Both the position numbers and the translations under genes were made by a program. The notes under the pieces were generated by a model, which was not told the DNA's origin, made no database searches, and saw only the letters and a list, made by a program, of their open reading frames with translations. Below are positions 8,174 through 62,272 of a stretch of 64,000 nt of DNA, piece after piece. The stretch comes from Octopus vulgaris. Lineage: Eukaryota. Position 1 is the stretch's first letter, and each line of letters begins with the position of its first letter. The stretch is from positions 40,114,001-40,178,000 of the forward strand of contig OX597837.1 of assembly GCA_951406725.2 (NCBI GenBank). The letters run 5' to 3'.

Positions 8174-8890
8174 GTGAAGGCGCATGAAGTGGTGGTTAGG
8201 GAGTTCATATCTCGGTGGTAACGTCGTGAGATAAGGCGGTGAGCTGGCAGAAATTTTAGCACGCCGGGCGAAATGCTTAGCGGTATTTTGTCTGCCGCTA
8301 CGTTCTGAGTTCAAATTCCGCCGAGGTCGACTTTGCCTTTCATCCTTTCGGGGTCGATAAATTAAATACCAGTTACGCACTGGAGTCGATATAATCGACT
8401 TAATCCGTTTGTCTGTCCTTGTTTGTCCCCTCTGTGTTTAGCCCCTTGTGGGTTGTAATGAAATAGGTATTTCGTCTGTCTTTACGTTCTGAGTTCAAAT
8501 TGCGCCGAGGTCAACTTTACCTTTCATCCTTTCGGAGTCGATTAAATAAGTATCAGTTACGCAATGAGGTCGATGTAATCGACTTAATCCGTGTGTCTGT
8601 CTTAGTTTGTCCTCTCTGTGTTTAACCCCTTGTGGGTAGTAAAGAAATAGGTATTGTCGTGAGATCGGTCCCTAGCGGCGTGTTGTGTCCTTGGACAAGG
8701 CACTTTATTTCACCTTAATTCAGTCCACTCAGCTGTCAAAAGTAAGTTGTACATATAATTTACATTGAGAGTCACGGTAAATCTTTGTGAGAACCATGTT
8801 AAGGACACACGCGTCTGAGTAGTGCTCAGCCACTTGCAAGTTAAATTTGAACTGGAACCCTCATCGTCGTCATCGACCAAATGCTTGTTA
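8174..8890 (+). mobile_element. Old tRNA/CORE-like SINE interrupted by a SINE-B dimer
   Basis: Head at 8174-8232 resumes at 8656 with GTGTTGTGTCCTTGGACAAGGCACTT; GTCGTGAGAT duplicated at 8223-8232 and 8656-8665. Confidence 0.65.
8233..8655 (+). mobile_element. SINE family B, head-to-tail dimer
   Basis: GGCGGTGAGCTGGCAGAA..GAGTTCAAATTCC..GTCGACTTTGCCTTTCATCCTTTCGGGGTCGATAAA; body repeated twice; 10-bp TSD. Confidence 0.85.
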
Positions 8891-12636: not shown

Positions 12637-13199
12637 TGGGTTGTCCGGAAAGTTCGTGCCGTTTTATAGTAGCTTACCTCTCGACTTATTTTAGAACATA
12701 GTTGAGTCCATAAAATAGCATTTGACTACACCTCCATTTAGAGCACAGCTTAAGCTATCTTTTCGTGGAATAAGGTTTATGTTCCTATAACCTGTGTTAA
12801 TTCTGTAACCCTTTAAAATGGAAGATAAGCAAGTTCATTTTCGGCACTTGATGCTTTGGGAACCAGACAAAAATTGCTGCAACTCGGCTGGGATGTGTTA
12901 TCCCACCCTCCATATTCACTAGATATTGGGCCTTGGGATTTCCACTTATTCAGGTTCTGCAGAATAGTCTTAATGGTAAAAATGTTAATTCCTTGGATGA
13001 CGCAAAAATATATCTTGATGAATTCTTTGCCATGAAACCACCTCAATTCTGGGAAGAAGGTATTTTCAAGTTAAAGGAAAGATGGAGACGCATTGTGCAA
13101 CAAAATGGTTCATATTTGCTTGATTAAAAATGTAATGGCAAGTATTTATTGACCTTTTTCTTTCCTTTAAAAATCTGCACGAACTTTCCGGACAACCCA
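12637..13199 (+). mobile_element. Internally deleted mariner transposon
   Basis: 23-bp TIRs TGGGTTGTCCGGAAAGTTCGTGC / GCACGAACTTTCCGGACAACCCA; MEDKQVHFRHLML (12818) joined to LGWDVLSHPPYSLDIGPWDFHLF...KLKERWRRIVQQNGSYL. Confidence 0.9.
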
Positions 13200-14380: not shown

Positions 14381-14712
14381 TATACATACATACGTATACA
14401 TATATGTTATTTTATATAAATATGCAGGTGAACTTACCATATGTAGATTCAAGTAGAGCCTCAATTTTTATTGATGCAGGTAGAGTGTCAATTATTATTG
14501 ATGTTCTGGTATAATTATACGATCAGGAATATAAAAATATATTTAATAGTAGAGAGTTGTGGTAGTAAAAGAAATATGTTCAAATAGCTAACTAAAGTTA
14601 GTGCTGGTACATATAATATATGGAATGTATATATGTATATATATATTGTAATTAAGTGGAGTATACAGAAAATATGAGTATAATTTTGTGGATGTGATAT
14701 ATATATATATAC

Positions 14713-14947
14713 ATGGAATTTTATGTAACTTTAAGTTCATATGTGAGTGAACTTGCAATATTTAGGTACACATGTGTGTATATATATATATATATGTATA
14801 TATACATGTACATATATATATGTATGTATATATATACATGTATATATATATGTATGTGTATGTACATGTATATATGTATATACATGCAATTTTATGTAAC
14901 GATATGTACATATGTGGGTGAACTTACAATATTTAAGTACACGTGTG

Positions 14948-14986
<39 letters not shown>

Positions 14987-15108
14987 GTATGTATATGTAC
15001 ATGTATATATGTATATACATGCAATTTTATGTAACTTTAAGTTCATATGTGGGTGAACTTACAATATTTAGGTAAACGTGTGTGTATACATATATGTATA
15101 TATACATG

Positions 15109-15173
<65 letters not shown>

Positions 15174-15375: not shown

Positions 15376-16164
15376 ACAGAGTTTCAGTTGTTTCCGATGT
15401 TATGTTACAAGTGTAAAATCAAATAAATAAATAGATGGTTAAAGTGGAAAATGCATATAGGGCAATTAACACTGAAAGGGTTATTTTATATAATTGCATG
15501 AAATTAATATAAATTGGTTTGAATAAAATTTTTGAAATTGTTATTTAAAAATTTATAGATTAAAAGTTAAATATTAACGATTGCAAATTAAATATTAACG
15601 ACTAAAAATTAAATATTAAAGATTTAAATAATATTATGCGTATAAGAATATAGGTTATAATCATTTCTCTAATAAGAAATGATATTAAGAGGCTTATACT
15701 AAATGATAAATGATATTTAGAGAGTATAAAGGTAATACTCATCATAAATTCCTCCTGTTCCCGCTTCTCTGTCCCTCCTTTGTCTCTCTCGACACCTACC
15801 TCTTTCCCTCTCTCTTACATACCTTTCTCTTTTTCTCATCTCTTTCCTCTGTATGTATTATCACAGTTGTTAGCTCTATATAGAATATATTAGGGTATTT
15901 ATATGAGAGGTATTATATATTATTATAATTTTGCGGCAAAAAAATGCGGTGAATTAATGATATTTTAATTATATATATTTCTGTACATGTAAGCATTGGG
16001 AAATTTTCTCAGATCTATCATTTAAAATTTCATGCCTAGAGAATAAAATGTTGTATGGCTCATCCGTGCAAAGTGAACAGGTTTTGGTCTGTACACATGA
16101 GCGTTGCTTAAAAATTTCCATTTAATTTCATAACTTATATTGCTATATTTTAGTTTCCAGGTAT

Positions 16165-17405
16165 TTTAACTCAACAACTCAAATGTGGACATAATATACC
16201 TTTTGATAAAGAGAACCATGTTATGATATGGCACAAGCTACGTGATCTTGGCATAGCTGGAAAACTTGGAGTGTGGTTACATCACTTTCTGAAAAATAGG
16301 AGTCAGGCAGTAGTGGTTAATGGAGCCACCTCAAAGAAAACACAAATAGTGAGTGGTGTTCCACAGGGTAATGTCTTGAAACCACCGCTTTTTATAGTGG
16401 CCCTCTCATATATGCCCTCAGCTACCCGGATATCCACCCTTACTAACTACTCAGACGATACGAATGTCCAGCAGAAAATACAGGACCTCCGCGAAGTTGC
16501 ACATTTGCAGCAGGAGTTGCACTCAAATTACAGATGGACTGAGGGCAATAATATGCAGTTTAATGTCGGAAAATACCAATCCCTGCGCTACCGGCACCCA
16601 AAACTGATTATAATACTCACAGGTTATACTGGCCCACAGGGACTACAATCTCATATCCTAAATAATTGTGAGACCTGGGTATCGACATGAATGATGATGC
16701 ATATTTCCAAGTACACATTACCAGGATGGCGACAAAGTGCAGACTGGCTGGCTGGATTCTGATAACGTTCAGAACCAGAGAGAAGGAAACCATGATGGTC
16801 TTCTAGAGAACATTCGTCCTTAGCCGCCTGGACTACTGCTACCAGCTATGGTCACCCAACAGTGTAAAATTAACAGCGGACTTTGAAGCTTCACAAAGAA
16901 GCTCATCTCATGCAACAGCTCAGCTACTGGGATAGGCTGAAACAACTAAGACTCTACTCCCTGGAGCGAAGGCGGGAGAGATATGCAGAAATATACATCT
17001 GGACGGTACTGGAAGGAATTGTGCGAAATTTTGGCATTGAAAGCTACACCAATGCCAGAACGGGAAAACACTGCATAGTGCCATAGATCCCAGCAACTCC
17101 ATCGCGCTTCAGGACCAGTTACAACAACAGCCTGGGTTTCAGGGGCCCACAGCTTCTTAATTTTCTCTCAAAGAGCCTGTGGAACCTACACAAAGTGGAT
17201 GTAGAAGTTTTGAAATCAAAGCTTGATCTCTTCCTGTCGAAAGTCCCAGATGAACCTACCTTACAGCAGGAGGTGCAAATGACAGTAGCAACATCAAGCT
17301 TCCGTATTCCTCAAATGCCACATCTTAGAGGAGGCTCTCAATAAGAACAGTGTAGCAAAACGGCGGTGCCCCAGCATGACCACAGTTTCGAGCTGAAACT
17401 AACAA
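16165..17405 (+). mobile_element. 5'-truncated, decayed CR1-like LINE (RT C-terminal half plus 3' end)
   Basis: VSGVPQG, YSDDT (YADD-like), NNMQFN, LYSLERRRERY motifs across frameshifts and stops. Confidence 0.9.
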
Positions 17406-19610: not shown

Positions 19611-19690
19611 TTATCTGAAGATGGTGGTTTCTATGTTATCATATATTCTATGAATACATCAATAAAATTCTACCGAAACAGCTGTCGTTA
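19611..19690 (+). ncRNA. Type I hammerhead ribozyme candidate (weak stem I)
   Basis: CTGAAGA-t-GGTGG...CTACC-GAAAC-AGCT-GTC. Confidence 0.55.
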
Positions 19691-20452
19691 ATTTTAAACG
19701 CCATTTCTGTTTTCTTTATAGGATTTTAGTTGGAAAAGATTTATTTTTTTTATTATGTATGTTACTTCTTCTAATGGTTCTTATTTATAGCGAACCATTT
19801 GGTCGCAGGAATATAAAGAAATTAACAAAGGTTGTCAAGCGGTAGAGAGCGTGACAAACACAGATAAAGAAACAAATGCACACATGAAAGATATTGATCA
19901 GCTCGAGGTCAACTTTACCGTTAATCTCTCCGGCATCGATAATATAGAGTACCAGTTATGTACTGAGATCGATGACACCCTTCAAATTTATGGGCTCTTT
20001 TATCGTATTTAGTAACAATTACATGCATGCACTTTTCTCTCTGTCTCTCTATTTCCCTATACATCTCTCTCTATCCCCTCTTCATTTATCCAGTACTCAA
20101 TCTGTTGTGAAGCACATACGTAAACACCTCCTGTATTTTCTTATAGGTTGTTCTTTAATCAAGCCAGTCTTTCGGTGTTCGTCTAAAATCACGTATCTTT
20201 AAGGATGGGATCTTTTTTCCCCTTCACGGTTTTATGTTTGATTCTTAACAGTGTAATGCATGCATAGAAACACGGAGCACAAAGGCGAAATTATTACATA
20301 AATAAACGAAGAAATAAATATTAAAAAAATAAAGTAAAGCAAAAGTTGGATGAGGAGGAATATATAAAGGAGAAGAGATTAACACTGGATATAGGTATGG
20401 ATTATAGAAACCTGTGTGATGAATATTTAGCAGCAGGATCTTCGCCATTCTG

Positions 20453-21709: not shown

Positions 21710-22552
21710 GGATTTCCCCACAAATAAGTCTAATACTGTACACACCTACTTAAACTGATGACAGAAACACTTTGAAGTAAGAGTTTACATATACAGTAAC
21801 ATACTTGCCAACATCAGAAGAAATATTATGAAAAAGAAGTTACTAGCTGAATTAGAGGTTGACGAAATTAAACAGCGAGTAAGGGATAAAAGGAACGAAG
21901 TTGCAGCTACAGAAGATACTACAGAGGAAATAATTATAGACCAACCCAGATCTGATGAAAATGCAGTAATGATTGAAAGAGTTAATGTAACTGATAAGCA
22001 AAGCGAAATACTCTCTGAACCAACCATAAACACTAAAGCAGATGAAAATCGAATAGATGAAGAAAGTCGCACAGAAATTGACCCAACTGAACTACATGAT
22101 CTAAAAAGATCAAATCACGATTGAATGGCTGAAAAATAATGAGACCAGCATGAATGAAAGTGAACTCGACCAAAAATTCGCAATTCTAACCAAAACCTGA
22201 AAGTAATTGCTAAAAATCCACCTTGCAATTAAGGATATAATTTCAGCTAATGATGTTGATATTATAGATCTCTTCCACCTGTACTCTGCATCCGCGAAAA
22301 ATCTCAACGATTCAATGTAGTGAAGAGATTAGAAAACGACAACATTCCCACAAAAAAGCCTACGAGGTAAGAGCTTATTCAAAACCTAATTTAGCTACTT
22401 TGGTTTGACAGAGAAAGTTTTAAAAACCTGTAGTTTGACAAGACTATCAAACCAACAAAAGTCCGAAAATCTTAAGAACTATATAAGACGAAAACCATAC
22501 TTGACATCGATACTACCATAGAAGCCATCAAGCCCTGACTCATCAATGGTTA

Positions 22553-23236
22553 GTGTCTTCTGGCTTAAAATCAGAAACAGAAAGAGTTTTTCATAGTAGC
22601 CCGAAATCAATGCCTACCTACCAAGCCAACTACCAAGCCAACATATTAATGAATGGCAGTAGCGCAACATGTCGTGTATGTCAACAACAAAATGAAACCA
22701 TTGATCATGTTGTCTCCAAGTGCAGTCTTCTTGCGCCTACAGAGTATCTCAACAGGCATGATAGATCTGTACAATATATTCACTGTGTAAGCTGCAAAAA
22801 CTTGGAGCTGCCCCATAAAAAAAACTGGTGGGAACATGAACCACCCCCAGTGCTTGAAAATGACCACATCTCACTCCTCTGGAACTTCACCATTCAGATT
22901 GCCAGAAAGATAGATGCAAATAGGCCAGACATCATATTGAAAGACTTCAGACAAAAAACATGCCTCCTCATTGATATGACTGTCCCAATCGATATAAACG
23001 TATCTCTCAAGACCTACCAAAAGCTGAGCAAGTCTAAAGATCTTGAAATAGAAATTGGCCAAATGTGGAACCTCAAAACTAAAACAATACCTGTTGTCAT
23101 AGGCGCCCTAGATGTGATAGCAAAAGAGGTTGATTCCTACCTAGGGCAGATACAAGGACACCCCAAAACGGCAGAAATTCAAAAGATCGTGCTCATGGAA
23201 ACTCTCCATGTCCTACGTCAAATACTGTCGATGTAA
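22553..23236 (+). pseudogene. CCHC plus restriction-like endonuclease domain of an R4/Dong-like ORF
   Basis: 227-aa open frame with CCHC, RHD, PD-(D/E) motif, IPVVIGAL. Confidence 0.85.
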
Positions 23237-24785: not shown

Positions 24786-24903
24786 TGTATATAAATAAGG
24801 ATAAGATCGATATTTAAATACCGATCGTATCAGGTGGCCAGCATGGCAATAAAATTTTCAAAGGTAATAATTATTTAAAATTATAATTTAGGGTTTCTAA
24901 AAG

Positions 24904-25033
24904 ATACCACCACATTGGAAATAGCAGCCAAAACTTGACTCTAAAACCACATTAAATGTTCATACATTTAATGTATGAATATTTAATGTGGTTTTAGAGT
25001 CAAATTTGGCTGCTATTTCCAGCATGGTGGTAT
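24904..25033. repeat. Fold-back inverted repeat, about 60-bp arms
   Basis: TGGAAATAGCAGCCAAA..CTCTAAAACCACATTAAAT / ATTTAATGTGGTTTTAGAG..TTTGGCTGCTATTTCCA. Confidence 0.85.
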
Positions 25034-25153
25034 GTCTATATGTATATATACGTTTATATATGAATATGCGTACATGTGTGTGTATGTGTGTGTGTGTGTG
25101 TTTGTCTTTCACCATCGTTTGACAGCCAGTGTTGCCTTGTTGGTTTGTTTATG

Positions 25154-25205
<52 letters not shown>

Positions 25206-27893: not shown

Positions 27894-28650
27894 TATTATT
27901 ATTATCATTATTATTATTGTTATTATTATTAAAATAATCATTATTATTATTATCATTATCATCATTATAATTATTATTGTATGGTTATGATCCCCGTTGA
28001 ACAAAATATTTGATCCTTCACAACTCTGAGAACCGCCATGTTACACATCTTGCTGTCAACGATTTTACGTCTTGGAACAGGAAAAATAATTAAATATTGC
28101 AATTGTTTGCCCTTGACGACGTTCGTTAACTTGAAGAGAAAGAGAAAGAGAGAAGCAGAGTGAGGTAGGCTGTTGTCGTTGTTGTTGCTGTTGCTGATGT
28201 CGGTGGAGATAAGATGTTGCCATCTCTGGAATGGAATAAATTCCAGAGTGTCCCATCTGCATGGATTTTAATGAGCAGATTTCTTAATGAAAATCGACAT
28301 GAAATTCATTATAACATTTTATGCCTTAAAGGCGGCGCGTTCGGTAGAATTGTTAGCGCGTCGGATCGAACGTTTAGAGTTATTTCGTCCGGCTCTTTTA
28401 CATTCGGTGTTGAAATCTCACCGAAGATAAATTTGCCTTTTATTTTTTTTTTCTGGATCAATAAATTAAAGTGAGAGTTAAGAACTGGGGTCGATGTAAT
28501 CGTCTTTTCTGCTCCCATAAAACCGCTGGCCAAAATAACCCATATTTCATGCATTAAGTCACATGATCTAACGGTTGAGGAATTTGATTTGGAAATAATG
28601 GTCCTGGAGTATGAATTTGAATGTTTCTTTTTACCTCGTTTTTGGACAAA

Positions 28651-28768
28651 CCTATTTCTTTACTACCCACAAGGGGCTAAACACAGAGGGGACAAACAAG
28701 GACAGACACACAGATTGAGTCGATTATATCGACCCCAGTGCGTAACTGGTACTTATTTAATCGACCCC
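28651..28768 (-). mobile_element. SINE family B 3' fragment
   Basis: CCTATTTCTTTACTACCCACAAGGGGCTAAACACAG.. Confidence 0.8.
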
Positions 28769-28991
28769 TGGTATACATGGGCGACTGCTGCTCTGCGGTA
28801 AACAACGATGCCTGGACCGGTGCATCGGAGAGTACTTCCTAGGTGCAATTCCATGGATATTCATGACTGAAGGAAGTCTTAGTATACTTATGCACACTGA
28901 TTTACACATACATATATACATACATATTTACATATATATATATATATACATACATACATACGTACATATATACATACATATATATATATAC

Positions 28992-29250: not shown

Positions 29251-29444
29251 GTACACATTGAAGCACATACTCAGGTCTAACATCAAAGGATGGATATATA
29301 CTTAATAGTTAAGAACAATAAAACTTCGAAACCAAGGCAACTGTTAATGGTCTCCAACGGAATAAAAAAAAAGCCAAATCATAATTAAAAAAAGAAAAGA
29401 GTGTAAAAACATTTAATTTATTCATATATCATTTTTAGTTTATA

Positions 29445-29730
29445 CTTTTTATTATATTTTTATTATATTTATTATATGTTTTTATATGTTTTATTATATT
29501 TTTATTATATTTATTATATGTTTTTATATGTTTTATTATATTTTTATTATATTTATTATATGTTTTTATATGTTTTATTATATTTTTATTATATTTATTA
29601 TATGTTTTTATATGTTTTATTATATTTTTATTATATTTATTATATGTTTTTATATGTTTTATTATATTTTTATTATATTTATTATATGTTTTTATATGTT
29701 TTATTATATTTTTATTATATGTTTTTATAT
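29445..29730. repeat. 42-bp AT-rich minisatellite, about 6.5 near-perfect copies
   Basis: Unit TTTTTATTATATTTATTATATGTTTTTATATGTTTTATTATA (14-aa periodicity in ORF track). Confidence 0.9.
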
Positions 29731-37013: not shown

Positions 37014-37849
37014 AAGAATTTCTCAGAAAGGGCGGAGATCTGGCCGAATCGTTACCACGGCAGGGAAGATATTTACCAGTTTTTGAGTCCGTCATTACTT
37101 TCTGAGTTTAAGTTCCGTCGAGGTTGACTTTGCCTTTCATCATTTCGGGGTTGATTAAATAAATACCAGTTGAACACAGGGGGTGGATGAAACATACTCT
37201 CACCCTCCCCTGAAACTGCGGGCCTTGTTACAAATTTTGAAACTATTATTAATTTCTCAGAAATCAAAAAAGAAGAAAAAAACACCGTGACTCCAAAATC
37301 AAGAGACAAAAACACGAAAACGGCACCTTCTCATAAAGTCATGACGGCGTGCAGAAAACTAATAAATGTGAGTGACTAAAATTATGAAATAATGTCCATC
37401 TTTTAAAGCTTTGTAACTTTTATTTATTATCAATTTCTCAATAAAATGGTTGCGATATTTCACAATTGTCATGAAAAAATATAGCTGACTAGAAAATTTC
37501 CAATTAATTCCAAAGAAATGTGGTAATCAGAAATGATCCCGAAACAATATTGAAAACTGGAAAAAGAAAAAAAGAAAGAAAAATTAAGTAAAGATCGGAA
37601 TTAAATTCAGATTAGATTAAGTTATAAAGAACGGCTGAAATATTTAATTAAGTTAGTAATACTAACGTATGTTAATAAAGTTGAGAATTTTCGTTAACGA
37701 AATAAAATGACAGTTATTAAATAGAAGGATAGAACTTACACTCGAATGGTACGAGCAGTCTTAAACATATCTTTGGAGATCTCATCTCACCAAGAAACAG
37801 CTCTATGGAGGCGGCGAGCAGGCAGAGACCTTAGCACTCTGGGTGAAAG

Positions 37850-38602
37850 GCAGACGAAATACCTATTTCTTTACTAGCCACAAGGGGCTAAACACAGAGA
37901 CGACAAGCAAGGACAGACAAACGGATTAATTCGATTATATCGACCCCAGTACGTAACTGGTACTTAATTTTTCGGCCCCAAAAGGATATAAGGCAAAGTC
38001 GACCTCGGCGGAATTTGAACTCAGAACGTAGCGGCAGACGAAATACCTGTTTCTTTACTACCCATAAGGGGCTAAAGGCAGAAGGGACAAACAAGGAGAG
38101 ATAAACGGATTAATTCGATTATATCGACCCCAGTACGTAACTGGTACTTAATTTATCGACCCCGAAAGGATGAACGGCTAAGTCGACCTCGGCGGAAATT
38201 GAACTCAGGACGTAGCGGCAGACGAAATACCTATTTCTTTACTACCCACAAGGGGCTAAAGGCAGAAGGGACAAACAAGGAGAGATAAACGGATTAATTC
38301 GATTATATCGACCCCAGTACGTAACTGGTACTTAATTTATCGACCCCGAAAGGATGAACGGCTAAGTCGACCTAGGCGGAAATTGAACTCAGGACGTAGC
38401 GGCAGACGAAATACCTATTTCTTTACTACCCACAAGGGGCTAAACACAGAGAGGACAAACAAGGACAGACAAACGGATTAAGTCGATTATATCGACCCCA
38501 GTACGTAACTGGTACTTAATTTATCGACCCCGATAGGATGAAAGACAGTCGAAATACCACTAAGCATTTCGTCCGGCGTGCTAACGTTTCTGCCAGCTCG
38601 CT
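37850..38602 (-). mobile_element. Tandem array of about 4 SINE-B bodies (about 182-bp period)
   Basis: GGCAGACGAAATACC..GGGGCTAAA..ACGGATTAA..GTCGACCTCGGCGGAA repeated; single head at about 38550-38602. Confidence 0.85.
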
Positions 38603-39193
38603 TTCTATGAACGACAGAATAAGGACAGACCTTATGAAAAGTTATGTCGACAACCAACACACGCCATAGACCTTCATTTACCTACTACAAGCCAAAGACT
38701 TCATTTTAATCTTGATAGACTGGAAGGAAAGGAGCCTGGATTAATGATTAGGGAATTTGGCTCATAATCGTAAGGACATTCCCGACGGCGCGTTTTGTCC
38801 TTGAGCAAGACACTTCATTGCACGTTGCTGCACACCACTCCGCTCGCAACATTAAGTAGTACCTGCATTTCAAAGGGTTATCTCTGTCACATTCTGGGTC
38901 ACGCTGAATCTCCCTGAGGACTACGTTATTAAGGGGACGTGTGCTTGTGGACTGTTCAGCCACTTGCAGGTTAATTTTACGAGCAGGTTGTTCCGTTGAT
39001 CGGAGCAACTGGGACCCATGTCGTCGTAACTGACGGAGCAACATGAAATTGAATGCCTTGCTCGAGGTCACGACGCGCTGCACATTCAAGTAATTGAACC
39101 GACGGCATTGTGGTCGTGAGCCACGCACTATAACCACTACGCCATACAACTGGATTCGAATTTTATCTATTTATTACAAGTTATTCCTACATC

Positions 39194-39781
39194 ACATAAG
39201 GGGCATCAGCCATCTGAATGTGGCTAGGGACAGGGCGGGGTGGTGGGGGTGTTACTGATGCATTTAGCCCCAGGCGATCATCGACGTCACCAGGAGGGCT
39301 GACACCATAATGCATCAGTAACACCCCCACCACCCCGCCCTGTCCCTAGCCACATTCAGATGGCTGATGCCCCTTATGTTATAGAGCAGTTACTGTTTAT
39401 ATCTCGTCTAGAGATTTATTATTGTTTTCGAACGGTTTTTCTACATCAGTGACTGTGTTTACTGTGAAAATCCTTATATATATGGCCTGTAGAGAGAGTC
39501 ATTCGTCGGAGAACGGTGCTTACCATGCGTTGATAAGAGGCAATTACCTCGAAACCTGGTCCGTATGTAGTATCCGTATCTTCGGGGAATGATCTCCCTT
39601 TGCAGGCTAGAGGACACCGAGATGGTGTCAGCCCTCCTGGTGACGTCGATGATCGCCTGGGGCTAAATGCATCGGTAACACCCCCACCACCCCGCCCTGT
39701 CCCTAGCCACATTCAGATGGCTGATGCCCCTTATGTTATAGAGCAGTTACTGTTTATATCTCGTTTAGAGATTTATTATTG
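39194..39781 (+). mobile_element. Hammerhead-carrying non-coding retroelement (retrozyme/Penelope pLTR-like): 357-nt period, 1.3 copies plus 115-bp inversion
   Basis: TSD TATTCCTACATC at 39182-39193 and 39782-39793; 39309-39425 repeats as 39666-39782; 39194-39308 is the reverse complement of 39622-39736. Confidence 0.75.
39524..39567 (+). ncRNA. Type I hammerhead ribozyme candidate, U3-A8 core variant
   Basis: CATGCG-TTGATAA-GAGG-caatta-CCTC-GAA-ACC-T-GGT-C-CGTATG. Confidence 0.75.
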
Positions 39782-40165
39782 TATTCCTACATCGTTTTTA
39801 CTTTAATAAAACTGTCTAGAACCAACCTTCTGAATGGCGGGTGTCATATTCACATAAAAATAGTAAAAATTTGTGATAGACAAGAAGGAATCATAGAAAT
39901 GAGACTTTGTCTGATAAATTCATCATCTCCGGATTTAAATTTGTTTAAAGATTAACATCTGGTTATTTCTCCAGCGTATAGCATGTGTGTTGCACCTGTA
40001 CCTTGAGGGTCGATTTGTAATTTTCTGTTAATAAAGATTCTGGAGATAATCTTCGATAGATGAGATGTTTTTCGAAAATTTTTGTTTGAAATTTTTTTTT
40101 TATGAAGTGGTTGTCTGTATGTCTAGTGTTTCTTGTAGTGTGCTGTGTTCTTCATATACAAATAC

Positions 40166-43366: not shown

Positions 43367-43432
43367 TGTGTATTGTTATATTTCGGGACGGTCATTTCTT
43401 TTTTGCCAAATAAACACACGCACTATATATAT

Positions 43433-43662
43433 ATTTCTTTACTGCCCACAAGGTGCTAAACATAGAGGGGACAAACAAGGATAGACGAAGGGATTGAGTC
43501 GATTATATCGCCCCCAGTGCGTAACTGGTACTTTATTTATCGACCCCGAAAGGATGAAAGGCAAAGTTGACCTCGGTGGAATTTGAACTCAGAACGTAAC
43601 GACAGACGAAATACCGCGAAGCATTTCGCCCGGCGCGCTAACGTGTCTGCCAGCTCGCCGCC
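43433..43662 (-). mobile_element. SINE family B
   Basis: Full reverse-complement copy. Confidence 0.85.
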
Positions 43663-43676
43663 AAACAATGTGCTAT

Positions 43677-43758
43677 GCTTACTGCACCTAGGTTTCCCAA
43701 GCGGTCACCCATCTAAGTACTGACTAGGCTCGACGAGAACCGGTGCTTTCAACGTGAT
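43677..43758 (-). pseudogene. 5S rRNA pseudogene with internal deletion
   Basis: Minus ATCACGTTGAAAGCACCGGTTCTCGTCG|AGCCTAGTCAGTACTTAGATGGGTGACCGCTTGGGAAACCTAGGTGCAGTAAGC resembles metazoan 5S rRNA minus the box-A segment. Confidence 0.8.
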
Positions 43759-43799
43759 TTCGTTCTTCACTCTTCACTCTTTTATTACCGCTCTAGCAA

Positions 43800-44620
43800 A
43801 GTCTTTAGCACGCTGGACGAAATGCGTAGCGGTATTTCGTCTGCCGTTACGTTCTGAGTTCAAATTCCGCCGAGGTCGACTTTGCCTTTCATCCTTTCGA
43901 GGTCGATAAATTAAGTACTAATTACGCACTGAGGTCGATGTAATCGACTTAAACCGTTTGTCTCTCCTTGTTTGTCCCCTCTGTGTGTAACCCCTTGTGG
44001 GTAGTAAAGAAATAGGTATTTCGACTGTCGCTACGTTCCGAGTTCAAATTCCGCCGAGGTCGATTTTGCCTTTCATCCTTTCGGGGTCGATAAATTAAGT
44101 ACCAGTTACGCACTGGGGTCGTATAATCGGCTGGTCCCTTCCCACAAACTTCGAGCCTGTAATAGAAAGGATTATAGTTGTCATTAAAAAACCGGCGATC
44201 TGGCTGAATCGTTAGCACGCCGGGCAACATGCTTAGCAGCATTTCGTGTCGTAACGTTCGGAGTTCAAATTCTGCAGAGGTTGCTTTTATCTTTCATCCT
44301 TCCGGAATCGATAGAACAAGTACCAGTTGAATACTGGGGTCGGTTTAAATGACTTATTGTCTTCCTGATCTTGCTGGCCTTGTGCTAAAACTTGAAACCA
44401 CTCTCATTATCATTAAAGCAGTGAGTTGGCACACTTGTTAACGAGACCGAAAAGAAAATGTCTAACGGCATCTCTTCGGGAGCTTTACAATCGGAGTTCA
44501 AATGCTGTCGAGGCCGACTTTTGTCTTCCATTCTTTCGGGGTTGCTTAAAGTAAAAGGAGCAATCAGGAAGGGACCTCTCCCTTCCCTCAAAACTGCCGG
44601 CCTTGAGTCAAAATTTGAAT
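43800..44620 (+). mobile_element. Cluster of SINE-B and older B-like copies
   Basis: Four successive GAGTTCAAAT..TCATCCTT-type bodies of decreasing identity. Confidence 0.75.
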
Positions 44621-53470: not shown

Positions 53471-53687
53471 ATGTGTATATGGGTACATATGTGCATATAT
53501 ATATATATATATATATAATTTATAAAAATATGGTAAAGAATTCACTTTACCACACACCGAACTTTTCAGAAATAGCAGCCAAAAATTTTCAACTGCAAAT
53601 AAAAGTCTCCAGACAATGCATACTCAGAAAAATAACTCACATAGGTATAAGGGAAAAACAATGAAAGATCACATCCATATACGATAC

Positions 53688-53747
53688 CCGAGGACAGTCT
53701 GTTTCTGGATTTGTGGGTAAAACGCCACTTTTCCTTCATCAGCTCAG
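53688..53747 (-). ncRNA. Hammerhead candidate (inverted twin of 54243-54302)
   Basis: Reverse complement of the plus-strand motif. Confidence 0.7.
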
Positions 53748-54242
53748 AGATTTCTTCTGATTTAGATTTGAAAATACTAAGAATCAAACATACCCGTCCG
53801 ATATCTGTAACATCGGACAAACCATGCCAGACACCCAGTACTAGCGAATCCAAAAATACGAATGAGATCTATTATTCTCCCTGTCCGCCCACGTGAGTCA
53901 TAGAGCATTCCATTTCTACAGAGGTAAAAACTGCAGTTCAAATTCTTGGAGAGAAAGCATTATATTGTTATCAAAAAAGGGGGTCGAATTAATTAATTGT
54001 TAATAAATTCGACCAAGCAGTATTCGGTATGTAAAGACCATTTACGGTATATTTGAAGTATTAATTTATAAAAATATGGTACGGACAGGGAGAAAATATG
54101 GGCGGACAGGGAGAATAATAGATCTCATTCGTATTTTTGGATTCGCTAGTACTGGGTGTCTGGCATGGTTTGTCCGATGTTACAGATATCGGACGGGTAT
54201 GTTTGATTCTTAGTATTTTCAAATCTAAATCAGAAGAAATCT

Positions 54243-54302
54243 CTGAGCTGATGAAGGAAAAGTGGCGTTTTACCCACAAATCCAGAAACAGACTGTCCTC
54301 GG
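54243..54302 (+). ncRNA. Type I hammerhead ribozyme candidate
   Basis: CTGAG-CTGATGA-aGGA...TCCa-GAA-ACAG-A-CTGT-C-CTCGG. Confidence 0.7.
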
Positions 54303-54481
54303 GTATCGTATATGGATGTGATCTTTCATTGTTTTTCCCTTACACCTATGTGAGTTATTTTTCTGAGTATGCATTGTCTGGAGACTTTTATTTGCAGTTG
54401 AAGAAATAGCCAAATTTTTGGCTGCTATTTCTGAAAAGTTCGGTGTGTGGTAAAGTGAATTCTTTTTCTTTACCATATTTT

Positions 54482-54524
<43 letters not shown>

Positions 54525-56672: not shown

Positions 56673-57329
56673 AAAACTCCTCAGATCGATATCGATCTCT
56701 GCGCTTATTGACCGTGAGCTTTATTCCTCACAGATCCCCGATCCTAGCTTTTCATTTCCAATTTCTTTTTGCTTCCAAGTGAGCCCTAATCGACCGAATC
56801 TGTGATCAAAGGGATTTCAGCCATTAATCTCTGAGACCATTTTCTTTCTCTCCTCTTTTAACTCCCAGGGGTCCACTGCGGTAGTTTAAATCAATATAAT
56901 TCGCATGATAAACATAGGGCATGGTCAGTATTAAGAGCCCCGCCCTGCTATTACACAACACGAGACGTGGGAGTTAGGTGTGGCGTATTTTCTATGACAA
57001 TTATCTTCACCTCTAAGATGTAATATGATTATTTCTAATTTTGTTACAAGGCTAGCAATTTGGGGCTGAGAGAGGGCAAGTCAATTAAGTCGATCCAGAG
57101 TTCAGCTGGTTCTTATTTTATCGACCGAGAAAGGACGAAAGGCAAATCGCCATGGGCGATATTTGAATTTAGAACGCACGAAGATGGGAGAAATACCGCT
57201 AATGCATTTTGTCTGCCATTTTGTCGCATTCGGATATGATGATGATAATGGATCATCTCGTCTCTGTAAGGCAGCAAACTGGCAGAATCGGTACCGTGCT
57301 GGACGAAATGTTTCGTTCGTCTTTACGAA

Positions 57330-57985
57330 AGGCGGTGAGCTGGCAGAAACGTTAGCACGCCGGGCGAAATGCTTAGCGGTATTTCGTCTGCCGTTACGTT
57401 GTGAGTTCAAATTCCGCCGAGGTCGACTTTGCCTTTCATCCTTTCGGGGTCGATAAATTAAGTACCAGTTACGCACTGGGATCGATGTAATCGACTTAAT
57501 ACCTATGTCTGTCCTTGTTTGTCCCCTCTGTGTTTAGCCCCTTGTGGGTAAGAACGAAATAGGTATTTCGTTCGTCTTTACTAAAGGCGGTGAGCTGACA
57601 GAATCGTTAGCACGCCGGGCGAAATGCCTAGCGGTATTTCGTCGGTCTTTGTGTTCTGTGTTCAAATTCCGCCGAGGTCGACTTTGCTTTTCATCCTTTC
57701 GGGGTCGATTAAATAAGTACCAGTTACGCACTGGGGTCGATATAATCGATTTAATCCGTTTTTCTGTCCTTGTTTGTCCTCTCTGTGTTTAGCCCCTTGT
57801 GGATAGTAAAGAAATAGGTATTTCGTCCGTCTTTACGTTCTTAGTTCCAATTCCGCAGAGTTTGACCTTTGCCTTTCATTCTTCGGGGGTTCGATAAAAT
57901 AATTACCAGTTGAGTACTGGGGTCGGTGTAAGCAACTTACCCGTTTCTTCAAAATTTCTGGCCCTGTACTACAATCCGAATGGGA
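57330..57985 (+). mobile_element. Tandem SINE-B copies nested in an older B-like SINE
   Basis: Two full heads at 57330 and 57585, each preceded by TTTCGTTCGTCTTTAC; older host head at about 57268 resumes at about 57820. Confidence 0.8.
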
Positions 57986-58297
57986 TATTAGACTATCTGT
58001 GTATTTGATCAAGTAGTTAATTTATCGAAAATGGAAGACTGTAAGACAAAGTGGACCACGACTGAATTATCTTTGAGTATACATTGTCTGGGAGACTTTT
58101 CTTATAGTAGAGGAAATAGCTAAAGTTTTTTGGCTGCTATTTCTAAAAGTTCGGTGTGTGGTAAGGTAAATTATTTTACTGAACCCTAATTATATAACGT
58201 AATGTTTTAACTATACCGTAAATGGTCTTTTTACATACTGAACACTACTTGGTAAAATTATTAATTAATAATTAATTAATTTTACCCTTTTATTATT

Positions 58298-58344
<47 letters not shown>

Positions 58345-58424
58345 ATATATCGCCATGTTGATTCGCTAGCTTCTGCACGCATTTTTTTCTCTCCTTGCTT
58401 CTCTCCGTGTTTCTTTTCTGTGTA

Positions 58425-58462
58425 TCTTTCTGTTGAAGAGCGTAGGCCCGAAACGTAAAAGA
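58425..58462 (+). ncRNA. Atypical minimal hammerhead-like motif
   Basis: TCTTT-CTGTTGAA-GAGC-gtag-GCCC-GAAAC-GTA-AAAGA within repeat 58330-58560. Confidence 0.45.
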
Positions 58463-58803
58463 CTTGTTTTATTTATATTCCTGAGCGCCATACTAATACA
58501 ATTGTTTATTTGTACTCCACCTGCCTTCGTCTTTTGTTTATTTTCGTAAAGCTTCCCGTTATATATATATATATATACCACCTATATAAATGTTTGATGC
58601 TTACTAACTTCCTGCATGAAATTCGTTGCTTTGTACTATATATACATATATGTGTGCCTTCATGTGTGTATACGTGTGTGTGTGTGTGTGTGTGAATATA
58701 TCACCTTTCTTATATATGTATATATGTATATATATATATGTATACACCCATACACACACGCACATAAACACACACGCACACACCTATGTATATATAAGAA
58801 CTG

Positions 58804-59817: not shown

Positions 59818-59979
59818 TTGTATCTACCTTTTATCTTAATATATGTATGTATGTATATATATATATATATATATATGATATATATGATATATGATATATA
59901 TATATATATATATATGACGCCATGATAAATCGTTAGCCACTACACACATTTTTTTCTCTCCTTGTTTCTTTCTATGTCC

Positions 59980-60015
59980 CTTTCTGTAGAAGAGCGTAGG
60001 CTCGAAACGTAAAAG
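59980..60015 (+). ncRNA. Atypical minimal hammerhead-like motif
   Basis: CTTT-CTGTAGAA-GAGC-gtag-GCTC-GAAAC-GTA-AAAG within repeat 59915-60108, homologous to 58330-58560. Confidence 0.5.
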
Positions 60016-60104
60016 ACTTTTTCTATTCCTGAGCGTTATACTAATACATCTGTTTGTTTTATACACCACCTGTCTTCGTTTCTTTTGTTTTTCTCGTAAA
60101 CTCT

Positions 60105-60315: not shown

Positions 60316-60376
60316 GATAACTGAAGAGATGTCGGCGTGGGTTTCCGCCCCGACATCCGAAACTCGGAGTTTTATC
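60316..60376 (+). ncRNA. Type I hammerhead ribozyme candidate
   Basis: GATAA-CTGAAGA-GATGTCGG...CCGACATC-c-GAA-ACT-CGG-AGT-T-TTATC. Confidence 0.75.
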
Positions 60377-61977: not shown

Positions 61978-62089
61978 AGCCCTGATGAGATTCTACCCAA
62001 TATCATGCTATTGTATTCTAATCTTCGGATTTATTTCAATCTTTGAATTTGCAATTATATATCGGACTGAATTGAAACGTACGTAGGCT
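61978..62089 (+). ncRNA. Type I hammerhead ribozyme candidate
   Basis: AGCC-CTGATGA-GATTC...GAATT-GAAAC-GTAC-GTA-GGCT. Confidence 0.75.
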
Positions 62090-62164: not shown

Positions 62165-62272
62165 ATATTGTTATATTTCGGAATGGTCATATTGCCAGTT
62201 TAGCCAATAAAAACACACGCACTATTTTATTGGCTAAACTGGCAATATGACCATTCCGAAATATAACAATAT
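62165..62272. repeat. Perfect 48-bp-arm hairpin
   Basis: ATATTGTTATATTTCGGAATGGTCATATTGCCAGTTTAGCCAATAAAA, 12-nt loop, reverse complement; arm plus loop resembles 43371-43425. Confidence 0.9.

Follow-up and report, generated by a model that had tools for sequence, protein, structure and literature searches.

The element at positions 53516 to 54488 of a 64,000-nt stretch of Octopus vulgaris DNA (contig OX597837.1; here, the window) is very probably a young, non-autonomous, hammerhead-bearing insertion of the retrozyme-like kind, built from a unit of ~546 to 562 nt and mobilized in trans by a Penelope-like reverse transcriptase (RT)/GIY-YIG protein. It represents a new family of a known kind of element and not a new mechanism: Penelope-like elements (PLEs) with this architecture have been in the literature since at least 2013, and non-autonomous units bearing hammerheads since 2020.

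Dust-masked BLAST and exact-match scans of the window for repeats and inverted arms resolve the locus into two head-to-head copies, whose 3' ends point outward into runs of TA. The left copy contains a complete, noncoding unit of 546 nt (53516-54061, or 562 nt in the indel state of the right arm), with a GC content of 36% and with the minus strand as its sense strand. The unit is defined by a 20-nt direct repeat, 53516-53535 being identical to 54062-54081 at a spacing of 546, and the second occurrence (54062-54081, minus strand) constitutes the final 20 nt of a preceding tandem unit, i.e., a minimal pseudo-LTR (pLTR). Within the unit, the left arm (53518-53891, 374 bp, minus strand) forms the 3' part and the spacer (53892-54061, minus strand) the 5' part. 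Beyond a 17-nt templated insert (54082-54098) lies the right arm (54099-54488, 390 bp, plus strand), an inverted and 5'-truncated second copy that starts from unit position 171 and has the same 3' end as the left copy to within 2 nt. The arms are 95.6% identical over 390 columns, differing by 1 substitution and by gaps of 10 nt and 6 nt, both of them in the left arm, and their longest perfect stretch extends over 244 bp. An earlier reading of this DNA, made from the letters alone (the sequence-only reading), had described near-perfect inverted arms of about 375 bp and a 546-nt unit with 20-nt terminal redundancy, and both descriptions are borne out.

The insert at the junction had been missed in that reading. 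It consists of 13 nt identical to 54103-54115, at the start of the right arm, followed by a short re-copy of the end of the left piece, after which the right arm runs from 54099; a 21-bp duplication is thereby created, with microhomologies of 2 to 3 nt at the switches. Because the first duplicate keeps the letters of the unit at the join and the second keeps those of the arm, two joins with microhomology are indicated, and later slippage is disfavored. There is no palindrome at the inversion junction (the 54082-54098 region).

An older, 5'-truncated copy of the unit lies at 58063-58306 (plus strand); it is ~78% identical, has no remaining hammerhead, and ends in (TA)n at 58301-58341. It matches the right arm (E value of 1e-29) and, farther along and in the other strand orientation, the spacer (E value of 1e-17), confirming the earlier claim of a diverged copy that reads from arm into spacer, although its extent is slightly wider than the 58075-58300 first given. 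This copy is colinear with a head-to-tail unit junction over 195 of 249 columns, with a score of 261 versus scores of 174 and 134 when aligned to the element in its actual layout, and past the 3' end of one unit it continues through ~100 nt of the next. Since the old copy crosses the unit junction, we regard the unit, which also shows terminal redundancy, as having once been head-to-tail or circular. The 10-nt and 6-nt stretches missing from the left arm are present in both the right arm and the old copy, and we take the bases that the right arm has kept to be ancestral.

Beyond the old copy and a shared 15-mer, no match to the unit was detected in the 64-kb window, and no autonomous PLE with this sequence was found there. 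The 15-mer, located near the 3' end of the unit, has 5 exact matches in the window versus 0.16 expected; capture of a fragment of another repeat by the unit may explain this, as may a shared binding motif. The same 15-mer occurs in the arms of a 130-bp palindrome at 24904-25033. Several regions were considered as family members and rejected: alignment scores at 20100-20340 and 28560-28900 were not above those of shuffles, and the score at 24790-25160, a candidate based on the shared 15-mer, was marginal (47 versus a shuffle maximum of 45). Directly after the TA run of the old copy, another repeat is present in 2 copies (58330-58560 and 59894-60100, 77.5% identical), the first of which has a degenerate hammerhead-like core near 58432-58460 that was spotted by eye and is unscored by the descriptor applied below.

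The TA runs at 53495-53517, 54487-54521, and 58301-58341 are abutted by sense 3' ends in 3 of 3 cases, versus 0.7% of non-run positions, noting that the two ends of the element share one target and are non-independent. The (TA)n flanks previously noticed on both sides of the element are confirmed. On the left, the target reads (AT)11 followed by AA (53495-53518), and these 24 nt recur at 54499-54522, overlapping the right target run (54487-54521). The repeat is a possible target-site duplication and is nearly all TA, so the length of any duplication is indistinguishable within (TA)n.

Each arm bears a type I hammerhead-like motif, one at 53687-53748 on the minus strand (core from 53742, predicted cut after 53693) and one at 54242-54303 on the plus strand (core from 54248, predicted cut after 54297). 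Applying a strict descriptor (canonical core, stem I of at least 6 bp, and stem II of at least 3 bp) results in 2 matches in the window, those in the two arms, and in none in any of 200 dinucleotide shuffles; looser descriptors result in 3 matches (shuffle mean of 0.025) and 7 matches (shuffle mean of 0.63, maximum of 4). The hammerheads assigned to each arm, on both strands, by the sequence-only reading thus stand as hammerhead-like motifs, on the strength of descriptor and shuffles and without an Rfam match. Rfam searches yielded no hammerhead at the gathering score, nor at an E value of ≤5 over 5.2 kb or of ≤10 over 121 nt, and the matches listed were all low-scoring and below the gathering score, the best ones falling on microsatellites.

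Stem I of the motif spans 6 bp; stem II, with an A-A at its base, comprises 3 bp and 4 bp on either side of an internal loop; and stem III is near-palindromic and has 2 bp. Three features of the motif, namely the additional base that follows A9, the G10.1-C11.1 pair, and the weak, near-palindromic stem III, are described as traits of metazoan PLE and retrozyme hammerheads (PMC4209133). Stem III is predicted to pair with itself as a dimer at -8.3 kcal/mol, a mode described for metazoan type I hammerheads (Cervera 2014, PMC4209133), and the axolotl hammerhead HHR_Amex2 is active with a mismatch at this same place, the base of stem II (Cervera and de la Pena 2020, PMC7229834). For the same 62 nt, the canonical hammerhead fold (-7.7) is predicted to be less stable than the free fold (-13.2). 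The predicted pairing probability of stem I in a 71-nt fragment is 0.94 to 0.97 for five pairs and 0.59 for the sixth, and it is ≤0.11 in every longer context tried. The ribozyme may be weak or dead, given the extra A before G12, which is atypical. Among predicted Xenopus retrozymes, 8 of 9 are reported to show no cleavage in vitro (Li et al. 2026, bioRxiv 10.64898/2026.07.22.740005).

As RNA, the unit is predicted to adopt an imperfect internal rod of ~370 nt (53579-53949, minus strand), in which its 5' and 3' halves pair and the hammerhead is a side branch. The predicted fold of the sense unit has an energy of -166.4 kcal/mol (z score of -7.57, with 0 of 100 shuffles as stable; -6.5 when circular), and that of the antisense unit has a z score of -2.3. 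Of 17 control windows (10 shuffles each), 14 have z scores of -2.0 to +3.2, and the 3 that fall below -15 each overlap another repeat. DNA-level alignments of the rod halves contain G-U-type and A-C-type mismatches at ratios of 9:2 in 1 of 4 settings and 12:2 in the other 3 (P values of 0.033 and 0.006, respectively), and the ratio is 12:1 in the inner hairpin of the rod; this excess is suggestive of RNA-level selection or editing, although strand composition could contribute in part. A separate AT-rich hairpin in the spacer (53982-54014, minus strand) is kept in the old copy at 58251-58286, where a comparison of these 2 sequences finds 14 pairs, 2 compensatory and 0 broken.

Overlapping AP-1-like, E-box-like, and GC-box-like motifs occur at 53885-53900 (minus strand), together with an Inr-like motif at 53865, and we take them, from consensus motifs, to be a candidate internal Pol II promoter. 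This is the only such cluster in the window but was found post hoc. The unit appears to encode nothing: its longest stop-free frame is 100 amino acids, Pfam returned 0 matches for both of the 2 element frames, and a comparison of one element frame with a protein collection, confined to near lengths, produced 1 candidate and no significant hit. An ATG within the hammerhead core opens a short frame. We considered and rejected an autonomous PLE, no ORF for a telomerase-like RT with GIY-YIG being present (no frame above those 100 amino acids, no Pfam match for the 2 element frames, and no homologue for the one frame compared). Nor was any remnant of a PLE protein recognized among the 141 stop-to-stop frames of at least 90 amino acids in the window, of which 5 (2 in the element and 3 elsewhere) were scanned with Pfam and the others were judged by eye.

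The anatomy of the locus agrees with the PLE pattern feature by feature, which is the basis for a PLE-type reading. PLEs are described as forming partial tandems with an adjacent inverted 5'-truncated copy, an optional tail of 30 to 40 bp, hammerheads in their pLTRs, and a bias toward microsatellites (Craig 2021, PMC8557442), the same features being restated by Goubert 2022. In particular, the element resembles the endonuclease-positive PLEs (Penelope/Poseidon, Neptune, and Nematis; e.g., Pen2a_Av; PMC8557442 and PMC3846280) in its partial tandem, head-to-head inverted 5'-truncated copy, type I hammerhead, AT-rich or (TA)n target, and variable 3' end. It differs from PLEs in that it lacks an ORF, has a tandem overlap of only 20 nt, shows no tail difference between its ends, has a junction with a templated 17-nt insert and no palindrome, and includes an inverted copy long enough to contain a hammerhead. 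The absence of the optional 30- to 40-bp tail at one end counts against a PLE-type reading, since the two ends lie within 2 nt of each other; the corresponding extension is ~100 nt in the old copy, longer than the usual 30 to 40, and 45 nt in the comparison element considered next.

This comparison element, from an unrelated family, occupies 39182-39793 (plus strand) and is bounded by a 12-bp target duplication (39182-39193 and 39782-39793), between which lie an inverted copy of 115 nt (39194-39308) and 1.3 direct units of 357 nt (39309-39781), with a 45-nt tail. It has a single hammerhead-like motif (39530-39561), with a U3-A8 core variant known from Schistosoma PLEs (PMC4209133), and its unit folds with a z score of -3.9. 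The sequence-only reading had credited this element (39194-39781) with the same architecture and integration mechanism as the studied one but an unrelated sequence. Their sequences are indeed unrelated (best E value of 0.86). The general plan is common to both, but the short inverted arm without a hammerhead, the 12-bp duplication, and the tail set the comparison element apart, and on these sequence features we regard it as the more textbook PLE-type case. A shared integration mechanism is supported, but that mechanism is the already published PLE pattern. At 39475-39504 and 39641, the comparison element has TATA-like and Inr-like motifs ~30 to 55 nt upstream of the hammerhead, and also CRE-like and GC-box-like motifs, all labels that we presume from consensus. 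One Inr-like hexamer is common to this element and the studied unit.

The element likewise resembles the animal non-LTR retrozymes (PMC7229834; Li 2026), also defined in a 2020 review, which are noncoding, have type I hammerheads and GC contents below 50%, are strongly self-paired, have head-to-tail ancestry, and are presumed to depend on PLEs; Li 2026 ties retrozymes to pLTRs. At 546 to 562 nt, the unit exceeds the 170 to 400 nt of the tested circRNAs (PMC7229834), yet it falls inside the range of 51 to 972 in Li 2026. It departs from an "active" retrozyme, which by Li 2026 has at least 2 consecutive hammerhead units, in having one sense hammerhead per strand, and the locus is at best a monomer-type retrozyme offspring. 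In the available text of Cervera 2020 (PMC7229834), inverted insertions go unmentioned, the word "inverted" having 0 occurrences. Hammerhead pairs on opposite strands, 100 to 700 bp apart, are described for PLEs (Cervera 2014, PMC4209133), and the minimal PLE hammerheads of Schistosoma (PMC4209133) share with those studied here a placement on opposite strands ~500 bp apart, an extra base after A9, and a palindromic stem III. Those of Schistosoma differ from the present motifs, which have a 6-bp stem I, an interrupted stem II with the extra A before G12, and a 2-bp stem III.

An annotation of the Octopus vulgaris genome reports 31 recently active PLE families, and in its accessible portion hammerheads are never mentioned. 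Among the matches listed by searches of the open literature (outside subscription journals, Repbase, and Dfam), none directly reports double or twin priming by PLEs, inverted retrozymes, or a hammerhead survey in cephalopods, and the accessible portion of a paper on W elements (PMC8490949) holds nothing relevant.

Five more hammerhead-like motifs, of unrelated sequences, occur at 19615-19686, 60321-60371, and 61982-62085 on the plus strand and at 55746-55643 and 11832-11727 on the minus strand. All have a long stem II as well as a stem III that is self-complementary (dimer duplex of -9.0 to -12.5 kcal/mol), and from their sequences they are probably remnants of other PLE families. Together with the motif at 39530, these make six more hammerhead-like motifs of other sequence in the window, and elements with such motifs are therefore common in it. 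Downstream of the 61982 motif is a 108-bp palindrome (62165-62272, 90.7%), which has a partial match at 43371-43426.

The window as a whole consists of animal DNA that is rich in AT and dense in microsatellites, and SINE-like repeats and LINE fragments are dispersed through it. One SINE-like repeat, at 37849-38552, 8282-8660, 57311-57946, and 43432-44356, forms partial tandems (periods of 184 and 255 nt) and direct-plus-inverted clusters, and no hammerhead was found at these four sites. Retroelement or transposon remnants are present at 16154-16690, 22505-23236, and 12852-13127 (all plus strand), with matches to RVT_1 (E value of 1e-5) and zf-RVT (E value of 6.5e-4) that are both below curated cutoffs; the third, 12852-13127, is mariner-like by eye and has no Pfam match. 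AT-rich, minisatellite-like arrays lie at 14698-15164 and 29439-29730, with periods of 135 to 171 nt and of 42 nt.

Returning to the studied element, its insertion under the preferred PLE-type reading would proceed as follows. RNA from a source locus elsewhere would take the form of a head-to-tail multimer or be processed into a circle; that the unit has a head-to-tail ancestry is apparent from the terminal redundancy and the old copy. A presumed endonuclease would cut within the (TA)n run that is seen as the target. RT primed from the plus-strand end of the target would copy one unit plus 20 nt of the next, yielding 53518-54081, and a second cDNA, primed from the minus-strand end of the target at the same RNA position, would yield the right arm of 390 nt. 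Joining of the inner ends would follow a single aborted template switch, which would account for the 21-bp duplication present in the sequence; RT jumping and host polymerase-theta-type end joining are the options for the enzyme.

We give an about even chance to the right arm having come from a second target-primed cDNA (double priming) rather than from fold-back self-priming. The right arm holds both stretches shared with the old copy, so it was not copied from the present-day left arm, and the lack of a junction palindrome, combined with ancestral bases that are present in the right arm and absent from the left, favors two templates. The two-step templated insert at the junction is likewise compatible with priming of reverse transcription from both target strands. 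Twin priming of L1 also gives head-to-head inversion, with both target strands primed and microhomology at the junction, the second primer being internal on the same RNA and no sequence being duplicated. The element is like L1 in its head-to-head inversion and in the microhomology at its junction; unlike in L1, the two copies here share a 3' starting position, and the duplication spans 374 bp. Purified PLE protein is reported to nick AT-rich DNA, to extend both strands, and to start internally on RNA, and it is predicted to be a dimer (Frangieh 2024, PMC11167929). In a fuller form, which we advance tentatively and rate below an even chance, the PLE protein would have double-primed on two molecules of an unusually large (~560-nt), viroid-like, rod-shaped circRNA, and the cDNAs would have been stitched together by template switching.

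The same family could instead have gained its inversion by fold-back self-priming, in which an antisense RNA or a first-strand cDNA would loop back across the 190-nt spacer, a rival to the second-cDNA step only and one that is quite possible without being probable. Head-to-head inversions in rotifer Penelope elements have been read in this way, with an antisense template, from palindromes at their junctions (Arkhipova 2013, PMC3846280); the junction here lacks such a palindrome, although it shows a 3-nt microhomology between the end of the left piece and the inner end of the arm. Just 1 substitution separates the arms, as self-priming would have it, but left-to-right copying could supply the ancestral stretches that the left arm lacks only if both deletions were later events, and two deletions of at least 6 nt versus one substitution would be an unusual neutral ratio. 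The deletions in the left arm could have arisen after insertion or by slippage in later copying, which would rescue self-priming, and microhomology deletions are known in Penelope copies (Arkhipova 2013, PMC3846280).

We consider it unlikely that the unit is a solo pLTR plus the 5' region of a heavily truncated or deleted autonomous PLE and not an independently amplifying retrozyme. PLE insertions are often 5' truncated (Craig 2021, PMC8557442), Xenopus retrozymes are described as sister to pLTRs (Li 2026), and the PAc ORF begins at its hammerhead (PMC11167929), much as the core ATG opens a short frame here. Against this, the unit closes upon itself after 546 nt in two copies that are ~22% apart, the rod involves the whole unit, and its frames have neither a Pfam nor a protein match.

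A non-autonomous DNA transposon with terminal inverted repeats (TIRs), either a Tc1/mariner-type MITE or a foldback element at a TA site, would account for the long terminal inverted repeats and for the TA on both sides, and we judge it very improbable. The sequence-only reading had proposed that mapping the unit to the TIRs of such a transposon would overturn its interpretation. That condition did not hold: the ends are not fixed, and the old copy continues past the supposed terminus and on into spacer sequence. The IR/DR organization of the Tc1 type is characterized by direct repeats placed internally in each arm, but the terminal 18-mer has no inner copy in either arm (7 mismatches in 18 at best), and such an element would not be expected to have hammerheads, a rod on the sense strand, or a templated junction.

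Still less probable is an assembly or library chimera, such as a fold-back read. Near-perfect palindromes within a microsatellite-rich assembly invite this explanation, and PLE inversions are known to trouble assemblies (Craig 2021, PMC8557442), but the two arm indels track an independent old copy, the junction insert is templated in two steps, both ends halt at the same unit position in a single TA target, and the plan recurs in the unrelated element at 39194, whose 12-bp duplication is clean. A non-autonomous DIRS-type element can hardly apply, since the internal 18-mer complementary to the right terminus and the lack of a clear target duplication would fit it, but the left terminus has no such internal complement, leaving an internal region that is not bipartite, when a DIRS element needs two parts complementary to both termini (Goubert 2022).

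For the PLE-type insertion that we prefer, the present layout has consequences at the RNA level. The sequence-only reading held that a transcript of either strand would contain a ribozyme and its antisense; this applies only to read-through from outside, whereas initiation within the spacer or from the Inr-like site of the arm would yield a transcript with no more than the sense ribozyme. Given the head-to-head arms, read-through always transcribes the antisense arm before the sense arm. The read-through RNA is predicted to form a duplex of approximately -710 kcal/mol, in which the hammerhead stems have a predicted pairing probability of 0.00. The duplex of ~375 bp is thus predicted to block the ribozyme, and it would feed small-RNA or editing pathways; the model points to silencing as a by-product and not to a designed ribozyme/antisense switch, and there is no sign that the sense/antisense pairing is functional. 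With one sense hammerhead per strand, the locus has no way of freeing a unit-length RNA through two cuts, and the element is best read as now being a dead end.

Published accounts treat the way in which tandem and inverted PLE insertions form as an unsettled matter (Craig 2021, PMC8557442; Arkhipova 2013, PMC3846280), and the value of the element is that of a mechanistic witness: young inversions with differences between the arms that are diagnostic of subfamilies allow one-template (self-priming) and two-template (double-priming) models to be separated from genome sequence alone. Double priming, if general, would explain the head-to-head inversions of PLEs without antisense self-priming, and, were it true, every such insertion would plant a long hairpin that silences its own family. 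The element would also add a large, rod-like retrozyme family to a cephalopod genome.
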